IMG/VR virus record: IMGVR_UViG_3300031134_000612
Source: a virus
Lineage: Duplodnaviria; Heunggongvirae; Uroviricota; Caudoviricetes
DNA length: 46,645 bases
Reading direction: 5' to 3' (one strand)
Positions 4,739 to 21,751 of this stretch are shown here, piece after piece. Position numbers and translations under genes: made by a program. The number at the start of each line of letters is the position of its first letter. Within the stretch, counting starts at the first letter, position 1. The notes under the pieces are model-generated. The model was given only the letters and a program-made list of their open reading frames with translations, made no database searches and had not been told where the DNA came from.

Positions 4739-6541
4739 ATGAAAAGTAAATTATTATTAACAAGTGCTCTTGCTCTTGCTATCTCAAATACAATTCATGC
4801 CGCCTATTTTGTAAATATTCCATTAGAAGGTGCTAAAATTGTATTCGAAGATCCCCAAGTTACAGGCGATATCACATTAACCCCAACCACAATTAACCGT
4901 GGAGAAAGCTCCAACATCGTTTGGAACTATACTTATGCAGACGAAATAAACATTGAAGATGTGGGCACTTATCATTCATTGACAGGAACTCAATCAGTAA
5001 GCCCAACTGAATCGACTGTTTACAACATCCTCATTAAAAGTGGTAATAAATCAAAAAATGAAACATTAAGTTTAACGGTCATACAACCTGATCAAAATAT
5101 AGCCTTCTCTGCTGACTCCTATCGAATAGGTTATGGTGCAAGCACAAATCTTAACTGGAATGTTAATAATGCTCAATCCGTCAGTATTGACAATGGTGTG
5201 GGTTCACAATCTTTGTCAGGACTTTACAAAGTTACGCCTAATACCGATACAACGTATACTTTAACCGCAAAAGGATTTACTGGTATCAGTGATAAAACTA
5301 AGTCAGTGAACATTGTTGTAGTGCCAGATGCAACCATCAATAATTTTACAGTTGATAATGGTGAAATATCAGTCGGAGATACATCAACATTTTCATGGAA
5401 TGTATCCAATGCTGAATCATTAACACTTAATGGAGAATCAGTAAATAAAACATCAGGTACGAAACCTGTTGTATTTTCAACAGCAGGTTCATTTACATAC
5501 AGTCTACAAACGACAAGTCTTAGTGGGACAGTGGCAAATAGTGAATCTAAAACGGTGAATGTTTACAATGCACCTTCCATTACTAGTTTTACAGCTAATC
5601 CAACAATTATTGATGCGGGTCAACCTGTTACATTAACCTTTAACACGACCAACGCAGTGTACAACGAAATTAATGGTGTGAATATGAATTCTAATGCCAA
5701 TTATGTAGTCAATCCAACCACAACGACTACTTACACATTGCTATCACGAAACCCTGTCAATAAACAAGTCACAAAAGATGTTGTAGTGACAGTACAAGGA
5801 TGGACACCCACAACCCCTGTTTACGGTGACTGGACAAATGTGGCTGGTAGAATAACGTATGGTTGTGGAGCATGGTCACCAAACCCAAGTACCGTAACAA
5901 CGAATACAACCTTTACACAAACTGCAACATGTTCAACCGATCAAACGAGAACACGTCAAGACAGAGTAGTTTCAAACGTTACTGGCGAAGTTAAAAACAG
6001 TGGAGCGGTTGTTAACGAAACGCAAACCATTGCACAAGGTGCTAGTCGTTCATATGGCGTAACCTTATCTGCATGGGTAGGATCAACTGTATCAGGTTGT
6101 GCTTCATGGTCACCAGACCCAAGTACAGTTAACTCTGGTCAAGTGTTTACACAAACTGGGGCAAGCTGTTCATTACCACAAACGAGAACAAGAACTGAAA
6201 ATTACATTGATCATGTAACAGGTGCTAATGTTCAAGTATCCACTGTGGGTCAAAACCAAACACTAACCGTGGGTGGTGCTGGATATGCAGGTGGTACCCG
6301 TTCAGCCACAGGAACGAAAGCCGTAGCACCAGTGCCTGTATGTCAATATTCTTACAATGATCCAAGAAGCATGGTTTGGGATGTGACCGGAGACGCTGTT
6401 TATGTATTCTGGAGTGGTGCCTTTATAGACTTTATGGATAATGGAGTGAATTCATCAATCAACTCTGGTGGTTATAAATACTACGCCGGAACTAAAATGG
6501 GTGATTGGCAAGCCTATCAAGTATGTAGAGTTGCATTGTAA
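4739..6541 (+). CDS. Exported Ig-like/PKD-like repeat protein with thrombospondin-like Cys/Trp repeats (600 aa)
   Basis: Sec-type signal peptide (MKSKLLLTSALALAISNTIHA); Thr/Ser/Val beta-rich repeats; two W-S-P-x-P-S-T-V...C...QTRTR repeats; Cys-bounded C-terminal domain. Confidence 0.7.
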   Translation: MKSKLLLTSALALAISNTIHAAYFVNIPLEGAKIVFEDPQVTGDITLTPTTINRGESSNIVWNYTYADEINIEDVGTYHSLTGTQSVSPTESTVYNILIKSGNKSKNETLSLTVIQPDQNIAFSADSYRIGYGASTNLNWNVNNAQSVSIDNGVGSQSLSGLYKVTPNTDTTYTLTAKGFTGISDKTKSVNIVVVPDATINNFTVDNGEISVGDTSTFSWNVSNAESLTLNGESVNKTSGTKPVVFSTAGSFTYSLQTTSLSGTVANSESKTVNVYNAPSITSFTANPTIIDAGQPVTLTFNTTNAVYNEINGVNMNSNANYVVNPTTTTTYTLLSRNPVNKQVTKDVVVTVQGWTPTTPVYGDWTNVAGRITYGCGAWSPNPSTVTTNTTFTQTATCSTDQTRTRQDRVVSNVTGEVKNSGAVVNETQTIAQGASRSYGVTLSAWVGSTVSGCASWSPDPSTVNSGQVFTQTGASCSLPQTRTRTENYIDHVTGANVQVSTVGQNQTLTVGGAGYAGGTRSATGTKAVAPVPVCQYSYNDPRSMVWDVTGDAVYVFWSGAFIDFMDNGVNSSINSGGYKYYAGTKMGDWQAYQVCRVAL

Positions 6542-19419: not shown

Positions 19420-20328
19420 TTAATCGTTAGCTTCAACTAATAAATTATGAACTTTGAGATCTTTATTAATCTCAATCATAGTTAGATAACCTTGTTTGTT
19501 TTTCTTCATGCCATACACTGCACCAGTATCAATAAAGAATTGATTACCTAACAATAAAGGTTTCTTAACAGGCGTATGACCATGAAAGGTATAGGCTACA
19601 TTATCTATGTAACTTTTGTGACGTAACTTCTTTTTAAACTTTTCTAACACATAGCGAAATGAGAAAGATATCCCATGCTTGAGATAAGGTAATGTTTTCC
19701 GAGTGGTAATGATTCTATACAAAGTCGTTCTGTTCCATAAACCATCTTTCAAAAATTTGATATAGGCTTTTCTGGCGTATCCCACCCCATTCTTTTTCAA
19801 TTCCATGTAAATTCTTTTACGACTCCATAAGGCGTCACGAATGACTTTCCCAGAATCTTTAATAGAACTCATGTCATGAGACAAGTTGGCGTCATTGAGG
19901 TATTGTTTAAACTGGTTCCAATCATTAAACTTTTGGGGAACTTGTGCATGAACTAACCCAACCAGACCAATACTGGTTTCTATTTCAATCGCCAGTGGTA
20001 GTTTTTTTATGATGGTAAGGCACTTATCTTTCTCTTCGGGTGTTAGTGTATTATACCAATCCTTAGCATAGGCTAAATGCCCAGTTAATAACATGGTTTC
20101 ATGATTACCCAAGATAGCAAAAAACCAGTCTTCATTGTTTAAAGCTAAGACTTCTAATGATTTTGGCCCACGGTCGATTAAGTCACCTACTGAAAAGAGG
20201 CGATCAATATTTTTATCGAAGTTAACGGATGCTAACAGTTTAAACAACTGGTCATAAATACCATGAATATCACCAACGATAAAGTCTCGACCTTTTTCAT
20301 TTTTGCCAAATGAGTGTAATTGATACAT
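19420..20328 (-). CDS. Ser/Thr protein phosphatase, PphA/lambda NinI-like metallophosphoesterase
   Basis: GDIHG, GDLIDRG, GNHE, GHTP and IDTGA motifs. Confidence 0.88.
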   Translation of the reverse strand: MYQLHSFGKNEKGRDFIVGDIHGIYDQLFKLLASVNFDKNIDRLFSVGDLIDRGPKSLEVLALNNEDWFFAILGNHETMLLTGHLAYAKDWYNTLTPEEKDKCLTIIKKLPLAIEIETSIGLVGLVHAQVPQKFNDWNQFKQYLNDANLSHDMSSIKDSGKVIRDALWSRKRIYMELKKNGVGYARKAYIKFLKDGLWNRTTLYRIITTRKTLPYLKHGISFSFRYVLEKFKKKLRHKSYIDNVAYTFHGHTPVKKPLLLGNQFFIDTGAVYGMKKNKQGYLTMIEINKDLKVHNLLVEAND

Positions 20329-20421
20329 TAAACAAACCTTTTCTGAGTTTATTTTAATAGCTTATAGCAATTTTAAGGTTTGGTCTATGGTGGTATTTTG
20401 AAATGATAGTTTTGCAGGAAT

Positions 20422-20449
20422 AAAAAAAGAACAACACTAGGTTGTTCTT
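20422..20449 (-). terminator. Terminator closing the tRNA-array/endonuclease transcript
   Basis: Minus strand AAGAACAAC-loop-GTTGTTCTT followed by a T tract. Confidence 0.7.
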
Positions 20450-20847
20450 TATTTTTCTTTAATAATGTTTTCTTTACATCCAATAAAGTATTTATGTTTA
20501 TTATTCACATTTACAGCCTTTCTATTGTGAAGATCTTTTGATGGAAAAATATAATAATTACCATCACCATCTAAAATAAAAATTTCATCTACTTTTGCTG
20601 AATCAATACGTTTAGCAATTTTATTCCAAGATTGGTTACCACCAGAAGTTACTAAGCAAACTTGATAAGATACTTCATTATCCTTATATCTAGAGCTTTT
20701 GCATTCTACTTTTTTTAATACACCATCAATATCTACGATCAAATCATAATAACTTGAATGGTTAAGAGGCTTACTGACAGTATATCCGAGTGACGCATAA
20801 TAAAAAACTGCGAATGCTTCGCAGTTATCACCTTGTGCTTTATTCAT
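20449..20847 (-). CDS. PD-(D/E)XK endonuclease, group I intron-associated/homing-endonuclease-like
   Basis: G..E.....Y....GY.VSKP....YDLIVD....KKVECKS pattern; ATG at 20847 follows SD GAGG. Confidence 0.75.
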   Translation of the reverse strand: MNKAQGDNCEAFAVFYYASLGYTVSKPLNHSSYYDLIVDIDGVLKKVECKSSRYKDNEVSYQVCLVTSGGNQSWNKIAKRIDSAKVDEIFILDGDGNYYIFPSKDLHNRKAVNVNNKHKYFIGCKENIIKEK

Positions 20848-20863
20848 AAACACCTCTCTAAGA

Positions 20864-20951
20864 TGGCGGAAGCGGTGAGATTCGAACTCACGGGACTTTT
20901 ACACCCGACAGTTTTCAAGACTGTTGCCTTAAACCACTCGGCCACGCTTCC
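20864..20951 (-). tRNA. tRNA-Ser(UGA)
   Basis: Cloverleaf with anticodon arm ACAGT-CTTGAAA-ACTGT, long variable arm, TTCGAAT T-loop, G73 and encoded CCA. Confidence 0.93.
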
Positions 20952-20955
20952 ATGT

Positions 20956-21008
20956 TGGTGGGCAGCGGTTAACCATCATTACGACATAATGACAGCTCCA
21001 TACTTCCC
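20956..21008 (-). ncRNA. 53-nt tRNA-like mini-RNA (acceptor-like stem, one hairpin, ACCA end)
   Basis: GGGAAGT...GCTGCCC-ACCA (6 of 7 pairs) enclosing TCATTA/TAATGA hairpin; no D or T arm. Confidence 0.4.
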
Positions 21009-21021
21009 ATAAATCTAAATT

Positions 21022-21105
21022 TGGTGAGTGCTGATGGATTCGAACCACCGTGTCTTCCGAAGGAGGGTTACAACCTCCCGCAATCGGCCTCTATGCGAAG
21101 CACCC
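21022..21105 (-). tRNA. tRNA-Tyr(GUA), variant anticodon loop UUGUAAC
   Basis: Acceptor GGGTGCT/AGCACTC, anticodon arm GGAGG-TTGTAAC-CCTCC, T-loop TTCGAAT, ACCA. Confidence 0.88.
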
Positions 21106-21128
21106 ATAATAAAACATTTTATCTAATT

Positions 21129-21216
21129 TGGCGGAAGCTGTGGGATTCGAACTCACGGAGCTGTTACACTCGACAGTTTTCAAGACTGTTGCCTTAAACC
21201 ACTCGGCCAAGCTTCC
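21129..21216 (-). tRNA. tRNA-Ser(UGA)
   Basis: Cloverleaf, ACAGT-CTTGAAA-ACTGT, GCCA end; close paralogue of 20864-20951. Confidence 0.93.
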
Positions 21217-21237
21217 ATATACGGTTTACAACTAAAT

Positions 21238-21327
21238 TGGTGGACGCCCAAGGATTCGAACCTCACGCCAACCGACCTGTCTTATTAAGGCGTCGCTTTT
21301 ACAGAGCGATGACAAGGAAAGGCGTCC
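21238..21327 (-). tRNA. Atypical D-armless tRNA-Tyr(GUA)-like RNA with enlarged variable region
   Basis: Perfect acceptor GGACGCC/GGCGTCC-ACCA, anticodon arm TCGCT-CTGTAAA-AGCGA, T-loop TTCGAAT; only 11 nt where the D arm should be. Confidence 0.7.
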
Positions 21328-21352
21328 ATTATTCTTACTATTACATCTAATT

Positions 21353-21436
21353 TGGTAGAGAGAACTGGATTCGAACCAGTGCGTCTTTCGAGCTAAATTT
21401 ACAGTCTAGTGCCTTCATCCACTCGGCCACCTCTCC
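21353..21436 (-). tRNA. tRNA-Tyr(GUA)
   Basis: Anticodon arm CTAGA-CTGTAAA-TTTAG, D and T arms present, ACCA. Confidence 0.88.
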
Positions 21437-21459
21437 ATTGAAACAGTTTATATCTAATT

Positions 21460-21543
21460 TGGTGGTTAGTGATGGATTCGAACCACCGTGCCTTTCGGAG
21501 TAGATTTACAGTCTACCGCAATCAACCGCTCTGCCAACTAACC
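21460..21543 (-). tRNA. tRNA-Tyr(GUA)
   Basis: Acceptor GGTTAGT/ACTAACC, anticodon arm GTAGA-CTGTAAA-TCTAC, ACCA. Confidence 0.93.
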
Positions 21544-21578
21544 ATAAGGGTTTTACATCTTTTTTTTTATTAAAAAAT

Positions 21579-21666
21579 TGGAGGAAGATGTGAGATTCGA
21601 ACTCACGGAGCTGTTACACCCTTCAGTTTTCAAGACTGACGCCATCGGCCACTCGACCAATCTTCC
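21579..21666 (-). tRNA. tRNA-Ser(UGA) with U73 discriminator
   Basis: TCAGT-CTTGAAA-ACTGA, long variable arm, ends CTTCC-T-CCA. Confidence 0.9.
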
Positions 21667-21722: not shown

Positions 21723-21751
21723 ATTCTATCAACTTCTTTCGTCCTTGTCAA
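21723..21751 (-). promoter_or_regulatory. Near-consensus sigma70 promoter directly upstream of the tRNA array
   Basis: TTGACA-17 nt-TAGAAT with TG-n extended -10 and A/T-tract UP-element-like sequence upstream. Confidence 0.8.

Follow-up and report, generated by a model that had tools for sequence, protein, structure and literature searches.

A predicted pseudoknot in place of the D hairpin: an apparently undescribed family of phage tRNA-Tyr genes

Known irregular tRNAs and the gene in the window

Among known molecules, those nearest to the gene considered here are the (8/4) transfer RNAs (tRNAs) and allo-tRNAs that Mukai et al. (2017, PMC5389517) reported from bacteria and from phages of alpha-proteobacteria. 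Our gene, 90 nucleotides (nt) long, lies at 21238–21327 on the minus strand of IMG/VR virus record IMGVR_UViG_3300031134_000612, a 46,645-nt sequence of the Caudoviricetes (the window); it probably encodes a tyrosine tRNA with anticodon GUA whose D hairpin is replaced by a long-range helix with the loop of the variable arm. Like the allo-tRNAs, it has a 12-base-pair (bp) acceptor/T branch split 8/4 and a long variable arm, occurs in phage tRNA clusters, and is missed or mis-called by standard tools. In contrast, allo-tRNAs are true cloverleaves with a D stem-loop (a long stem and a tetraloop), Ser or His identity, and a Ser-type G73 or U73, whereas the present RNA has no D hairpin, a predicted pseudoknot, A73 (in 46 of 48 homologues), and GUA. 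Of the features by which allo-tRNAs are recognized—an 8/4 or 9/3 split, a long variable arm, a D stem-loop, and G73 or U73—it has the first two and lacks the others.

Canonical class II tRNA-Tyr is exemplified by two neighbours in the window (21353–21436 and 21460–21543), which match the 90-nt gene in the anticodon loop CUGUAAA, G1–C72, A73, a long variable arm, a UUCGAAU T loop, and an encoded CCA, and which stand in one operon with it and have its junctions. In the canonical form the branch is 7/5, a D hairpin is present, and the variable arm, of 13 nt, leaves its loop free; the pseudoknotted RNA, by comparison, has an 8/4 branch, no D hairpin, and a 27-nt variable region whose loop is paired to the 5′ connector.

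An earlier first-pass annotation of the window called the RNA D-armless and referred to the D-armless tRNAs of animal mitochondria. Those molecules, such as mammalian mt-tRNA-Ser(AGY) and their nematode counterparts (PMC7609411), also have no D hairpin; however, their connector is short and flexible, their variable region is short, no helix stands in for the missing one, and the elbow is often weakened (PMC7609411). In the present RNA, from a phage and bacterial context, the core seems instead to be restored by a 6-bp helix that covaries, together with a GG motif. The term is therefore misleading and the comparison does not fit, because the connector pairs with the variable loop to rebuild a helix at the D-stem position, followed by a D-loop-like UYGG that resembles residues 16–19; the RNA falls outside this class.

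Another pseudoknot-containing RNA that presents Tyr identity elements is the tRNA-like structure (TLS-Tyr) of the bromovirus BMV (PMC9976931). It forms the 3′ terminus of a +ssRNA viral genome, has C1–G72, does not mimic the L shape in its free state, and takes no part in decoding; what its pseudoknot builds is the acceptor arm and not the D region. The gene in the window is instead internal to a DNA tRNA operon, with G1–C72 and an ordinary acceptor stem, and does not belong with the plant-virus TLS-Tyr elements. The tRNA-Tyr genes of phages T5 and T6, studied against retron-Eco7 and Septu (PMC11555353, PMC13096335), resemble it as extra phage tRNA-Tyr genes in which the variable loop matters for withstanding a defence that cleaves tRNA-Tyr; they are ordinary cloverleaves, and resistance of the pseudoknotted form is a hypothesis taken up below. 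Searches of the open literature, which takes in few subscription journals, brought up no account of a tRNA folded with this pseudoknot, and a 2020 review of non-canonical tRNAs makes no mention of one (PMC7609411). We are apparently dealing with a widespread phage tRNA-Tyr family that is a new, undescribed structural variant of tRNA.

Family and predicted fold

The reverse complement of 21238–21327, which the first-pass annotation had transcribed correctly to the base, opens and closes on a perfect 7-bp acceptor stem, GGACGCC/GGCGTCC. An 11-nt connector leads to the anticodon arm TCGCT-CTGTAAA-AGCGA and a variable region of 27 nt, in which CGCC...GGCG encloses a 19-nt loop; the T arm TGAGG-TTCGAAT-CCTTG and A-CCA (discriminator A, encoded CCA) complete the gene. 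Between an 8-bp acceptor stem and the anticodon stem there are only 10 nt and no local D hairpin. The parts are listed below, all on the minus strand; window coordinate = 21328 − p for RNA position p, and paired fractions and alignment columns refer to the family.

21238–21327, minus strand: whole pseudoknotted tRNA-Tyr(GUA) gene, 90 nt; 85.7 bits with the family model R1
21320–21327, minus strand: acceptor stem 5′ strand, nt 1–8 (GGACGCC plus U8), pairing with nt 79–86; columns 1–8/87–94 100% paired, 8 of 8 pairs changing on both sides
21318–21319, minus strand: linker UU, nt 9–10, at the place of residues 8–9; column 9 U or C in 47/48, column 10 U in 46/48
21311–21317, minus strand: 5′ strand of the long-range (pseudoknot) helix, CCUUGUC, nt 11–17, one U bulged, pairing with nt 47–52; covariation and RNAalifold
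21310, minus strand: A18, the single base between pseudoknot helix and anticodon stem, like residue 26; A or G throughout the family
21293–21309, minus strand: anticodon arm UCGCU/AGCGA with loop CUGUAAA, anticodon GUA at 21300–21302; stem 99.6% paired, 5 of 5 pairs covarying
21289–21292, minus strand: variable stem 5′ strand CGCC, nt 36–39, pairing with nt 59–62; 97.4% paired, 3 of 4 pairs covarying
21282–21288, minus strand: A-rich linker UUAAUAA, nt 40–46; 4–12 nt and 54% A in the family
21276–21281, minus strand: 3′ strand of the long-range helix, GACAGG, nt 47–52; covariation with nt 11–17
21270–21275, minus strand: UCGG-UU, nt 53–58, with U-Y-G-G the candidate equivalent of D-loop 16-17-G18-G19; motif fixed by the search pattern in most members
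21266–21269, minus strand: variable stem 3′ strand GGCG, nt 59–62; covariation
21250–21264, minus strand: T arm with 4-bp stem GAGG/CCUU and loop UUCGAAU, nt 64–78; covariation, loop fixed by the pattern
21238–21249, minus strand: acceptor 3′ strand nt 79–86, discriminator A87, and encoded CCA; family conservation

The case for this structure rests on comparison, because the single-sequence fold of the 90-nt gene is no better than that of shuffled copies (minimum free energy z = −1.22). Homologues were gathered with scan patterns built on the anticodon loop, GG motif, and T loop, which fixed CTGTAA, GGTYGG, and GGTTCGAATCC; the covarying positions, G1–C72, A73, CCA, and the CC at nt 11–12 were left free. 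The scans returned 79 metagenome contigs and 16 bacterial genome-assembly contigs, the latter mostly alpha-proteobacterial metagenome-assembled genomes, and also found members in IMG/VR viral contigs (L019, L028, L032, L048, and L061 in our numbering of loci); a first pattern that required CGCC/GGCG had no match in viral contigs. After parsing of the matches, the family comprises about 50 distinct sequences of 85–95 nt with one architecture. A covariance model, R1, scores members at 70–105 bits and canonical tRNAs at no more than 35 bits, with variants that have other T loops or GG motifs at 41–67 bits. Members recovered by other routes show the latitude of the fixed motifs: UUCGAUU T loops came to light through R1 and BLAST, and UYGG is replaced by UGG in L025, L041, and L228 and by UGUG in L229 (phage Rembedalsseter).

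Unannotated members were also found by BLAST in cultured Pseudomonas phages—Lyrsu01-03 from P. syringae (Lyrsu01 is PP179323) and Rembedalsseter from P. trivialis—where they lie just upstream of the small terminase gene (L228 463–550, PP179314.1; L229 513–600, PQ464593.1). The member in Rembedalsseter, a genome of 45 kilobases (kb), is its only tRNA-like gene and scores 26.3 bits with RF00005. By blastn, no copy was found in E. coli complete genomes or PLSDB plasmids, and the alpha-proteobacterial type had no match among isolated phages.

Alignment A1 contains 48 distinct homologues (median pairwise identity 66%) and was compared with 500 shuffles over five helices, one of which crosses another. 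Standard pairs occupy 98.5% of the helix cells, against 74.5% in shuffles and 39–48% when partners are slid; 22 of the 27 pairs have changed on both sides, and none of the 500 shuffles reaches the observed values. Given no structure, RNAalifold predicts the long-range helix together with the 8-bp acceptor stem. In the family the long-range helix has the form CCNNNC/GNNNGG (columns 11–17/53–58), is 99.3% paired with 4 of 6 pairs covarying, and exists in more than 20 sequence versions, among them CCUGUC/GACAGG, CCCGUC/GACGGG, CCUUAC/GUAAGG, CCGGUC/GAUCGG, CCUGCC/GGCAGG, and CCCGAU/AUUGGG. Because the covarying 4-bp variable stem crosses this covarying helix, the fold is a true pseudoknot.

The first-pass annotation had paired CTTGTC in the connector with GACAGG in the variable loop and suggested looking for covariation there in homologues. 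The complementary versions just described bear out the long-range pairing, whereas the register needs revision: it is CC-U-(U)-GUC with GACAGG, in the window C11–G52, C12–G51, U–A50, G15–C49, U16–A48, and C17–G47, with U13 or U14 bulged. The extra base is found only in the window and in two related JGI contigs, L010 and L011 (C in L010); it is absent from all other members, including the close relatives L117, L127, and L174, which lie on contigs of 0.4–0.6 megabases. We dropped an alternative in which connector CCUUG would pair with UGAGG of the T stem, as the family does not keep it and the pseudoknot partner covaries.

At the acceptor end, the eighth pair (U8–G79 in the window; column 8–87) is formed in 48 of 48 homologues as UG (31), GC (12), AU (3), or UA (2), whereas the pair that would make a 7/5 acceptor/T branch (71–87) is formed in only 23%, which rules that branch out. 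Given these four pair types and full occupancy, the branch is best read as 8/4, still 12 bp. A18 covaries with nt 36 as A/C (28) or G/U (17), which are isosteric wobble pairs. The A73 equivalent is present in 46/48, CCA in at least 44/48, and G1–C72 in 47/48, none of them imposed by the search pattern. The window copy has every feature that marks the R1 family: the 6-bp helix, the crossing 4-bp stem, the 8/4 branch, GUA, G1–C72, A73, and UYGG.

These elements suggest how a tRNA core could be rebuilt. The long-range helix would occupy the place of the D stem and of the 8-14 and 15-48 layers of a normal tRNA, stacking on the anticodon stem through one purine, as residue 26 does; its 5′ strand would enter the anticodon stem as residues 22–25 and 26 normally do. 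The 3′ strand starts with a G like G10 and ends in an invariant GG followed by U-Y-G-G, an order that may be read as residues 10–13, two extra layers replacing 8-14 and 15-48, and then 16-17-G18-G19. On this reading U-Y-G-G would act as 16-17-G18-G19 and dock on the T loop, and the single purine with the first base after the anticodon stem would be the counterpart of the 26-44 pair. In effect, the 5′ half of the D arm would be re-threaded into the variable loop, with the L shape and elbow kept.

Measured against the canonical cloverleaf, the gene has the acceptor stem, the discriminator, the 7-nt anticodon loop, and a T arm with a UUCGAAU-type loop; it has neither a D stem-loop (residues 9 to 26) nor a call by RF00005 or ARAGORN. 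ARAGORN called the six flanking tRNAs and not this gene; in a search of the 1.2-kb array, Rfam RF00005 (gathering threshold 29 bits) matched the same six and gave no match to it even at E ≤ 10. The RNA is not a cloverleaf, its D hairpin being replaced by a long-range helix with the variable-arm loop, and standard tRNA finders therefore miss the gene; for the same reason, phage arrays that carry the family look as if they had no Tyr. A mascRNA-menRNA Rfam match to the array (14.9 bits, E 8.6) was set aside as chance.

Selection and function as a tyrosine tRNA

The protein encoded just upstream of the array, 307 amino acids long, has nine clusters of homologues, from 98% down to 48% identity. 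L010 and L011 encode a 50%-identical homologue beside the same kind of Ser/Tyr array, and the L010 copy of the pseudoknotted gene is identical to that of the window at 87 of 90 bases; the three differences are the bulged base (U to C), one variable-loop base, and C82 to U, which turns G5–C82 into G5–U82. In Logan contigs from four further runs the gene is unchanged and the flanks vary. No relatives of the upstream protein were found in viral contigs, and the Logan contigs with its homologues (L001–L009) end just before the array and are uninformative on the gene. Since the gene is more conserved than its flanks and the adjacent protein (3 of 90 differences against 50% identity), it is under purifying selection and not in decay.

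A decaying tRNA-Tyr pseudogene that has lost its D arm, or an artefact of assembly, would account for the silence of tRNA finders and for the ordinary single-sequence fold energy. We give this explanation practically no weight: compensatory changes occur in every helix across about 50 independent sequences, which refutes it, and many independent assemblies and isolated phages carry the family. The random decay without covariation that the first-pass annotation wished to see checked in homologues is thus not what they show, and its view that the RNA is under selection holds, on the covariation and on a conservation exceeding that of the flanks. Assembly error as the cause of the missing D arm, which it had also raised, is excluded by the presence of the gene in independent assemblies (L010/L011 and L127) and in the four Logan runs.

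A subtler possibility is that the family is functional and the window copy is weakened or retiring, its bulge impairing folding after three canonical Tyr genes took over. The bulged 5′ strand is indeed confined to the window and L010/L011, whose R1 scores are among the lowest of typical members (85.7 bits for the window, 81.2 for L010). However, the bulge is common to two lineages that have diverged to just 50% identity in the neighbouring protein, and the bulged base has changed in identity only (U or C); the rest of the gene is intact, at 87/90 bases identical, the bulged form is unchanged in the four other runs, and a single bulged pyrimidine is easily tolerated within a 6-bp helix. We consider a retiring copy quite improbable.

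The gene itself lies among ordinary tRNA genes, as the following features show:

20864–21666, minus strand: tRNA array of Ser, Tyr, Tyr, pseudoknotted Tyr, Ser, Tyr, 53-nt mini-RNA, and Ser (ARAGORN/Rfam and junctions)
21723–21751, minus strand: promoter-like site TTGACA, 17 nt, TG-TAGAAT, ahead of the array; 11/12 consensus matches, consensus match only
20806–20826, minus strand: terminator-like hairpin and U run after the last tRNA (sequence)

The six canonical genes are three Ser-UGA and three Tyr-GUA (ARAGORN, Rfam). Every unit, the pseudoknotted gene included, has the junctions AU/GG at its start and CCA/AAUU-type spacer at its end; because these are common to all units, the pseudoknotted gene is expected to be processed as its neighbours are.

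Building on the fold, selection, family membership, and array context, we infer processing, charging, and decoding: the gene is probably a working tRNA-Tyr with a non-cloverleaf core. What favours the reading is that most large phage arrays would, but for this RNA, have no tRNA for Tyr. Of the 23 loci of members in which ten or more tRNAs were called, a canonical tRNA-Tyr was called in 2, and the pseudoknotted RNA is the only GUA RNA in the other 21; each other amino acid was called in 7–21 of these loci. In L154, with 22 tRNAs for 19 amino acids, Tyr alone is missing and the pseudoknotted GUA RNA stands within the array. A scan free of any anticodon constraint gave eight pseudoknot-positive matches, all with GUA. 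Bacterial Tyr identity elements are G1–C72, A73, and U35 (PMC9976931), and the features relevant to tyrosyl-tRNA synthetase (TyrRS) and EF-Tu are kept: G1–C72, A73, GUA, the long variable arm, and the 12-bp acceptor/T branch. Precedents exist for the irregular parts—tRNAs with an 8/4 branch translate in E. coli (PMC5389517), and a tRNA without a D arm is accepted by E. coli HisRS, EF-Tu, and the ribosome (PMC11551756). The RNA would be transcribed with its neighbours from one promoter and excised at the AU/GG and CCA/AAUU junctions; host TyrRS would charge it through G1–C72, A73, G34-U35-A36, and the long variable arm, and EF-Tu would carry the charged RNA to read UAY codons.

Several points weigh against this reading. 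The window lineage already has three canonical tRNA-Tyr genes, so the pseudoknotted RNA fills no gap here, and its pseudoknot helix contains a 1-nt bulge absent from most members. The count of loci without canonical Tyr rests on ARAGORN calls in contig excerpts of 1–14 kb, some of them near-duplicate loci; the conservation of CTGTAA, GGTYGG, and the T loop is partly circular, these having been fixed in the patterns that fetched most members; and the three-dimensional mapping of the core is reasoning rather than a computed model. Finally, no runs recorded as RNA are listed as carrying a 110-nt stretch with the gene. The four Logan runs that carry it are probably DNA, and contigs cannot show RNA ends, so they have no bearing either way on expression.

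The extra canonical genes also suit another explanation, in which the RNA is a tRNA-shaped decoy or sponge, unused in translation, that soaks up a tRNA-Tyr nuclease or titrates TyrRS or another tRNA-binding factor. The window and its close relatives have two or three canonical tRNA-Tyr genes alongside, so decoding does not depend on it here; small Pseudomonas phages carry the RNA almost alone, as would fit an anti-defence gadget; and the loss of host tRNA-Tyr that Septu brings about is partly suppressed when phage tRNA-Tyr is overexpressed (PMC13096335). A decoy would have no need, however, to keep G1–C72, A73, CCA, the 12-bp branch, and U33 and A37 in a loop of 7 nt, all together, nor does it explain a sole GUA-anticodon RNA in 21 of 23 large arrays. 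In a T5-type tRNA-Tyr, moreover, an anticodon change abolished rescue, which its authors read as a need for translation (PMC11555353). We regard a decoy as unlikely.

Still less probable, and about on a par with a retiring copy or slightly below it, is a tRNA-like RNA whose task lies outside translation: it might, for example, serve as a primer, act as a regulatory ligand, or donate an aminoacyl group to a non-ribosomal enzyme. Among natural tRNAs of irregular shape, some receive an amino acid yet go unused in translation (PMC5389517), and the Pseudomonas phages have the gene next to that of the small terminase, at the end of the genome. Against this, there is no conserved protein partner, the only constant context being other tRNA genes, and the anticodon and identity elements track Tyr. 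Of the functions proposed in the first pass, the Tyr slot that the RNA fills in most large arrays favours a tRNA that works and may resist nucleases; it is less likely to be purely a decoy or a mimic that binds proteins.

The same pseudoknot architecture also occurs with other anticodons. One version (L061 660–747, minus strand) has the loop CUUCUAA (UCU, Arg-type, with G73); another (L162 3694–3784, minus strand) has GUUGAGC (UGA) and the helix CCUACC/GGUAGG without a mismatch, so that the design is not confined strictly to Tyr.

Should the RNA prove to be charged and to decode, bacteria and their phages would have in it a natural and widespread exception—a second solution for the tRNA core that would inform the true requirements of RNase P, TyrRS, EF-Tu, and the ribosome, and a structurally distinct tRNA scaffold for genetic-code engineering.

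tRNA-Tyr nucleases, the array, and other tRNA-like elements

Septu and retron-Eco7 cut tRNA-Tyr in its variable loop, and phage tRNA-Tyr rescues infection (PMC13096335, PMC11555353). A spare tRNA-Tyr with its variable loop buried in a pseudoknot could escape Septu and the PtuAB of retron-Eco7; in the window, where three diversified canonical Tyr tRNAs are present, it would be a fourth of another structure. Two observations fit the idea: the window array contains Ser and Tyr tRNAs only, in several diversified copies, and small Pseudomonas phages with few or no other tRNAs still carry the pseudoknotted RNA. On the other side, the cleavage mapped for PtuAB in the E. coli tRNA falls inside the variable-arm stem, and a 4-bp variable stem is still present in the pseudoknotted RNA; nuclease resistance is a conjecture. 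That the pseudoknotted tRNA-Tyr is a cleavage-resistant spare is therefore a hypothesis we hold tentatively, and one that is rather more doubtful than probable.

Similarly speculative, and put forward with comparable reserve, is the widest form of the proposal: bacterial ribosomes in nature may routinely use L-shaped, non-cloverleaf tRNAs with the 5′ half of the D arm in the variable loop; phages would spread the design, mainly for Tyr and occasionally with UCU or UGA, hiding the variable loop from Septu and retron PtuAB; and phage tRNA inventories would be under-counted. The family would offer a concrete link to the arms race over tRNA-Tyr cleavage, and the cultured Pseudomonas phages put experiments within reach.

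The DNA around the array is phage-like, encoding a virion structural protein family, a NinI-like phosphatase, and a PD-(D/E)XK protein. Directly downstream of the array (19420–20853, minus strand) are the gene of the PD-(D/E)XK_5 nuclease family (134 amino acids) and that of the NinI-like metallophosphoesterase (302 amino acids); a connection of these two genes with tRNA damage or repair is conceivable. The gene 3′ of the array differs between lineages, being TnpB (OrfB_IS605) in L010 and PD-(D/E)XK in the window.

Gene order within the array also varies: the pseudoknotted tRNA follows the third Tyr in L010 (array at 5292–6079) and the second in the window (20864–21666), and Logan contigs from other runs show a join of 21349 to 21125. 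The third canonical tRNA-Tyr of the window (21022–21105, minus strand) has an odd anticodon loop, UUGUAAC, and one mismatched D-stem pair; at 44.7 bits with RF00005 it scores lowest among the six canonical tRNAs. The 53-nt mini-RNA, which ends in CCA, lies at 20956–21008 (minus strand) and has a counterpart in L010 (5938–5990, plus strand), directly 3′ of the pseudoknotted tRNA there; its central hairpin shows compensatory changes, UCAUUA...UAAUGA becoming UUGUUA...UAACAA in L010.

Long variable arms are normally restricted to Leu, Ser, and Tyr tRNAs. The arrays that carry the family also hold tRNAs of 85–96 nt with long variable arms and anticodons for Asn (GUU), Ile (UAU), Lys (CUU/UUU), and Thr (UGU), at L199 2850–2935, 3936–4029, and 4658–4745, L111 5526–5614, and L112 3795–3884 and 3947–4039.

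Two further tRNA-like elements came up in the searches. A conserved tRNA-like 3′ region ending CUCCCUCACCG-CCA, with an internal CUGUAAUGAAAUCAGUGAG hairpin, was an off-target of the pattern scan and is present in L107, L109, L123, L165, and L184 (Aeromonas simiae NZ_CDBY01000083.1). Separately, an element of about 78 nt recurs at the end of phage tRNA clusters (L012 11088–11164, L013, L016, L020, L024, L025, and about 20 other IMG/VR loci); it starts UCUCUGUAAAGCG, ends UACGGAGA-CCA, and has its CUGUAAA in the acceptor and 8-9 region, not in the anticodon loop.

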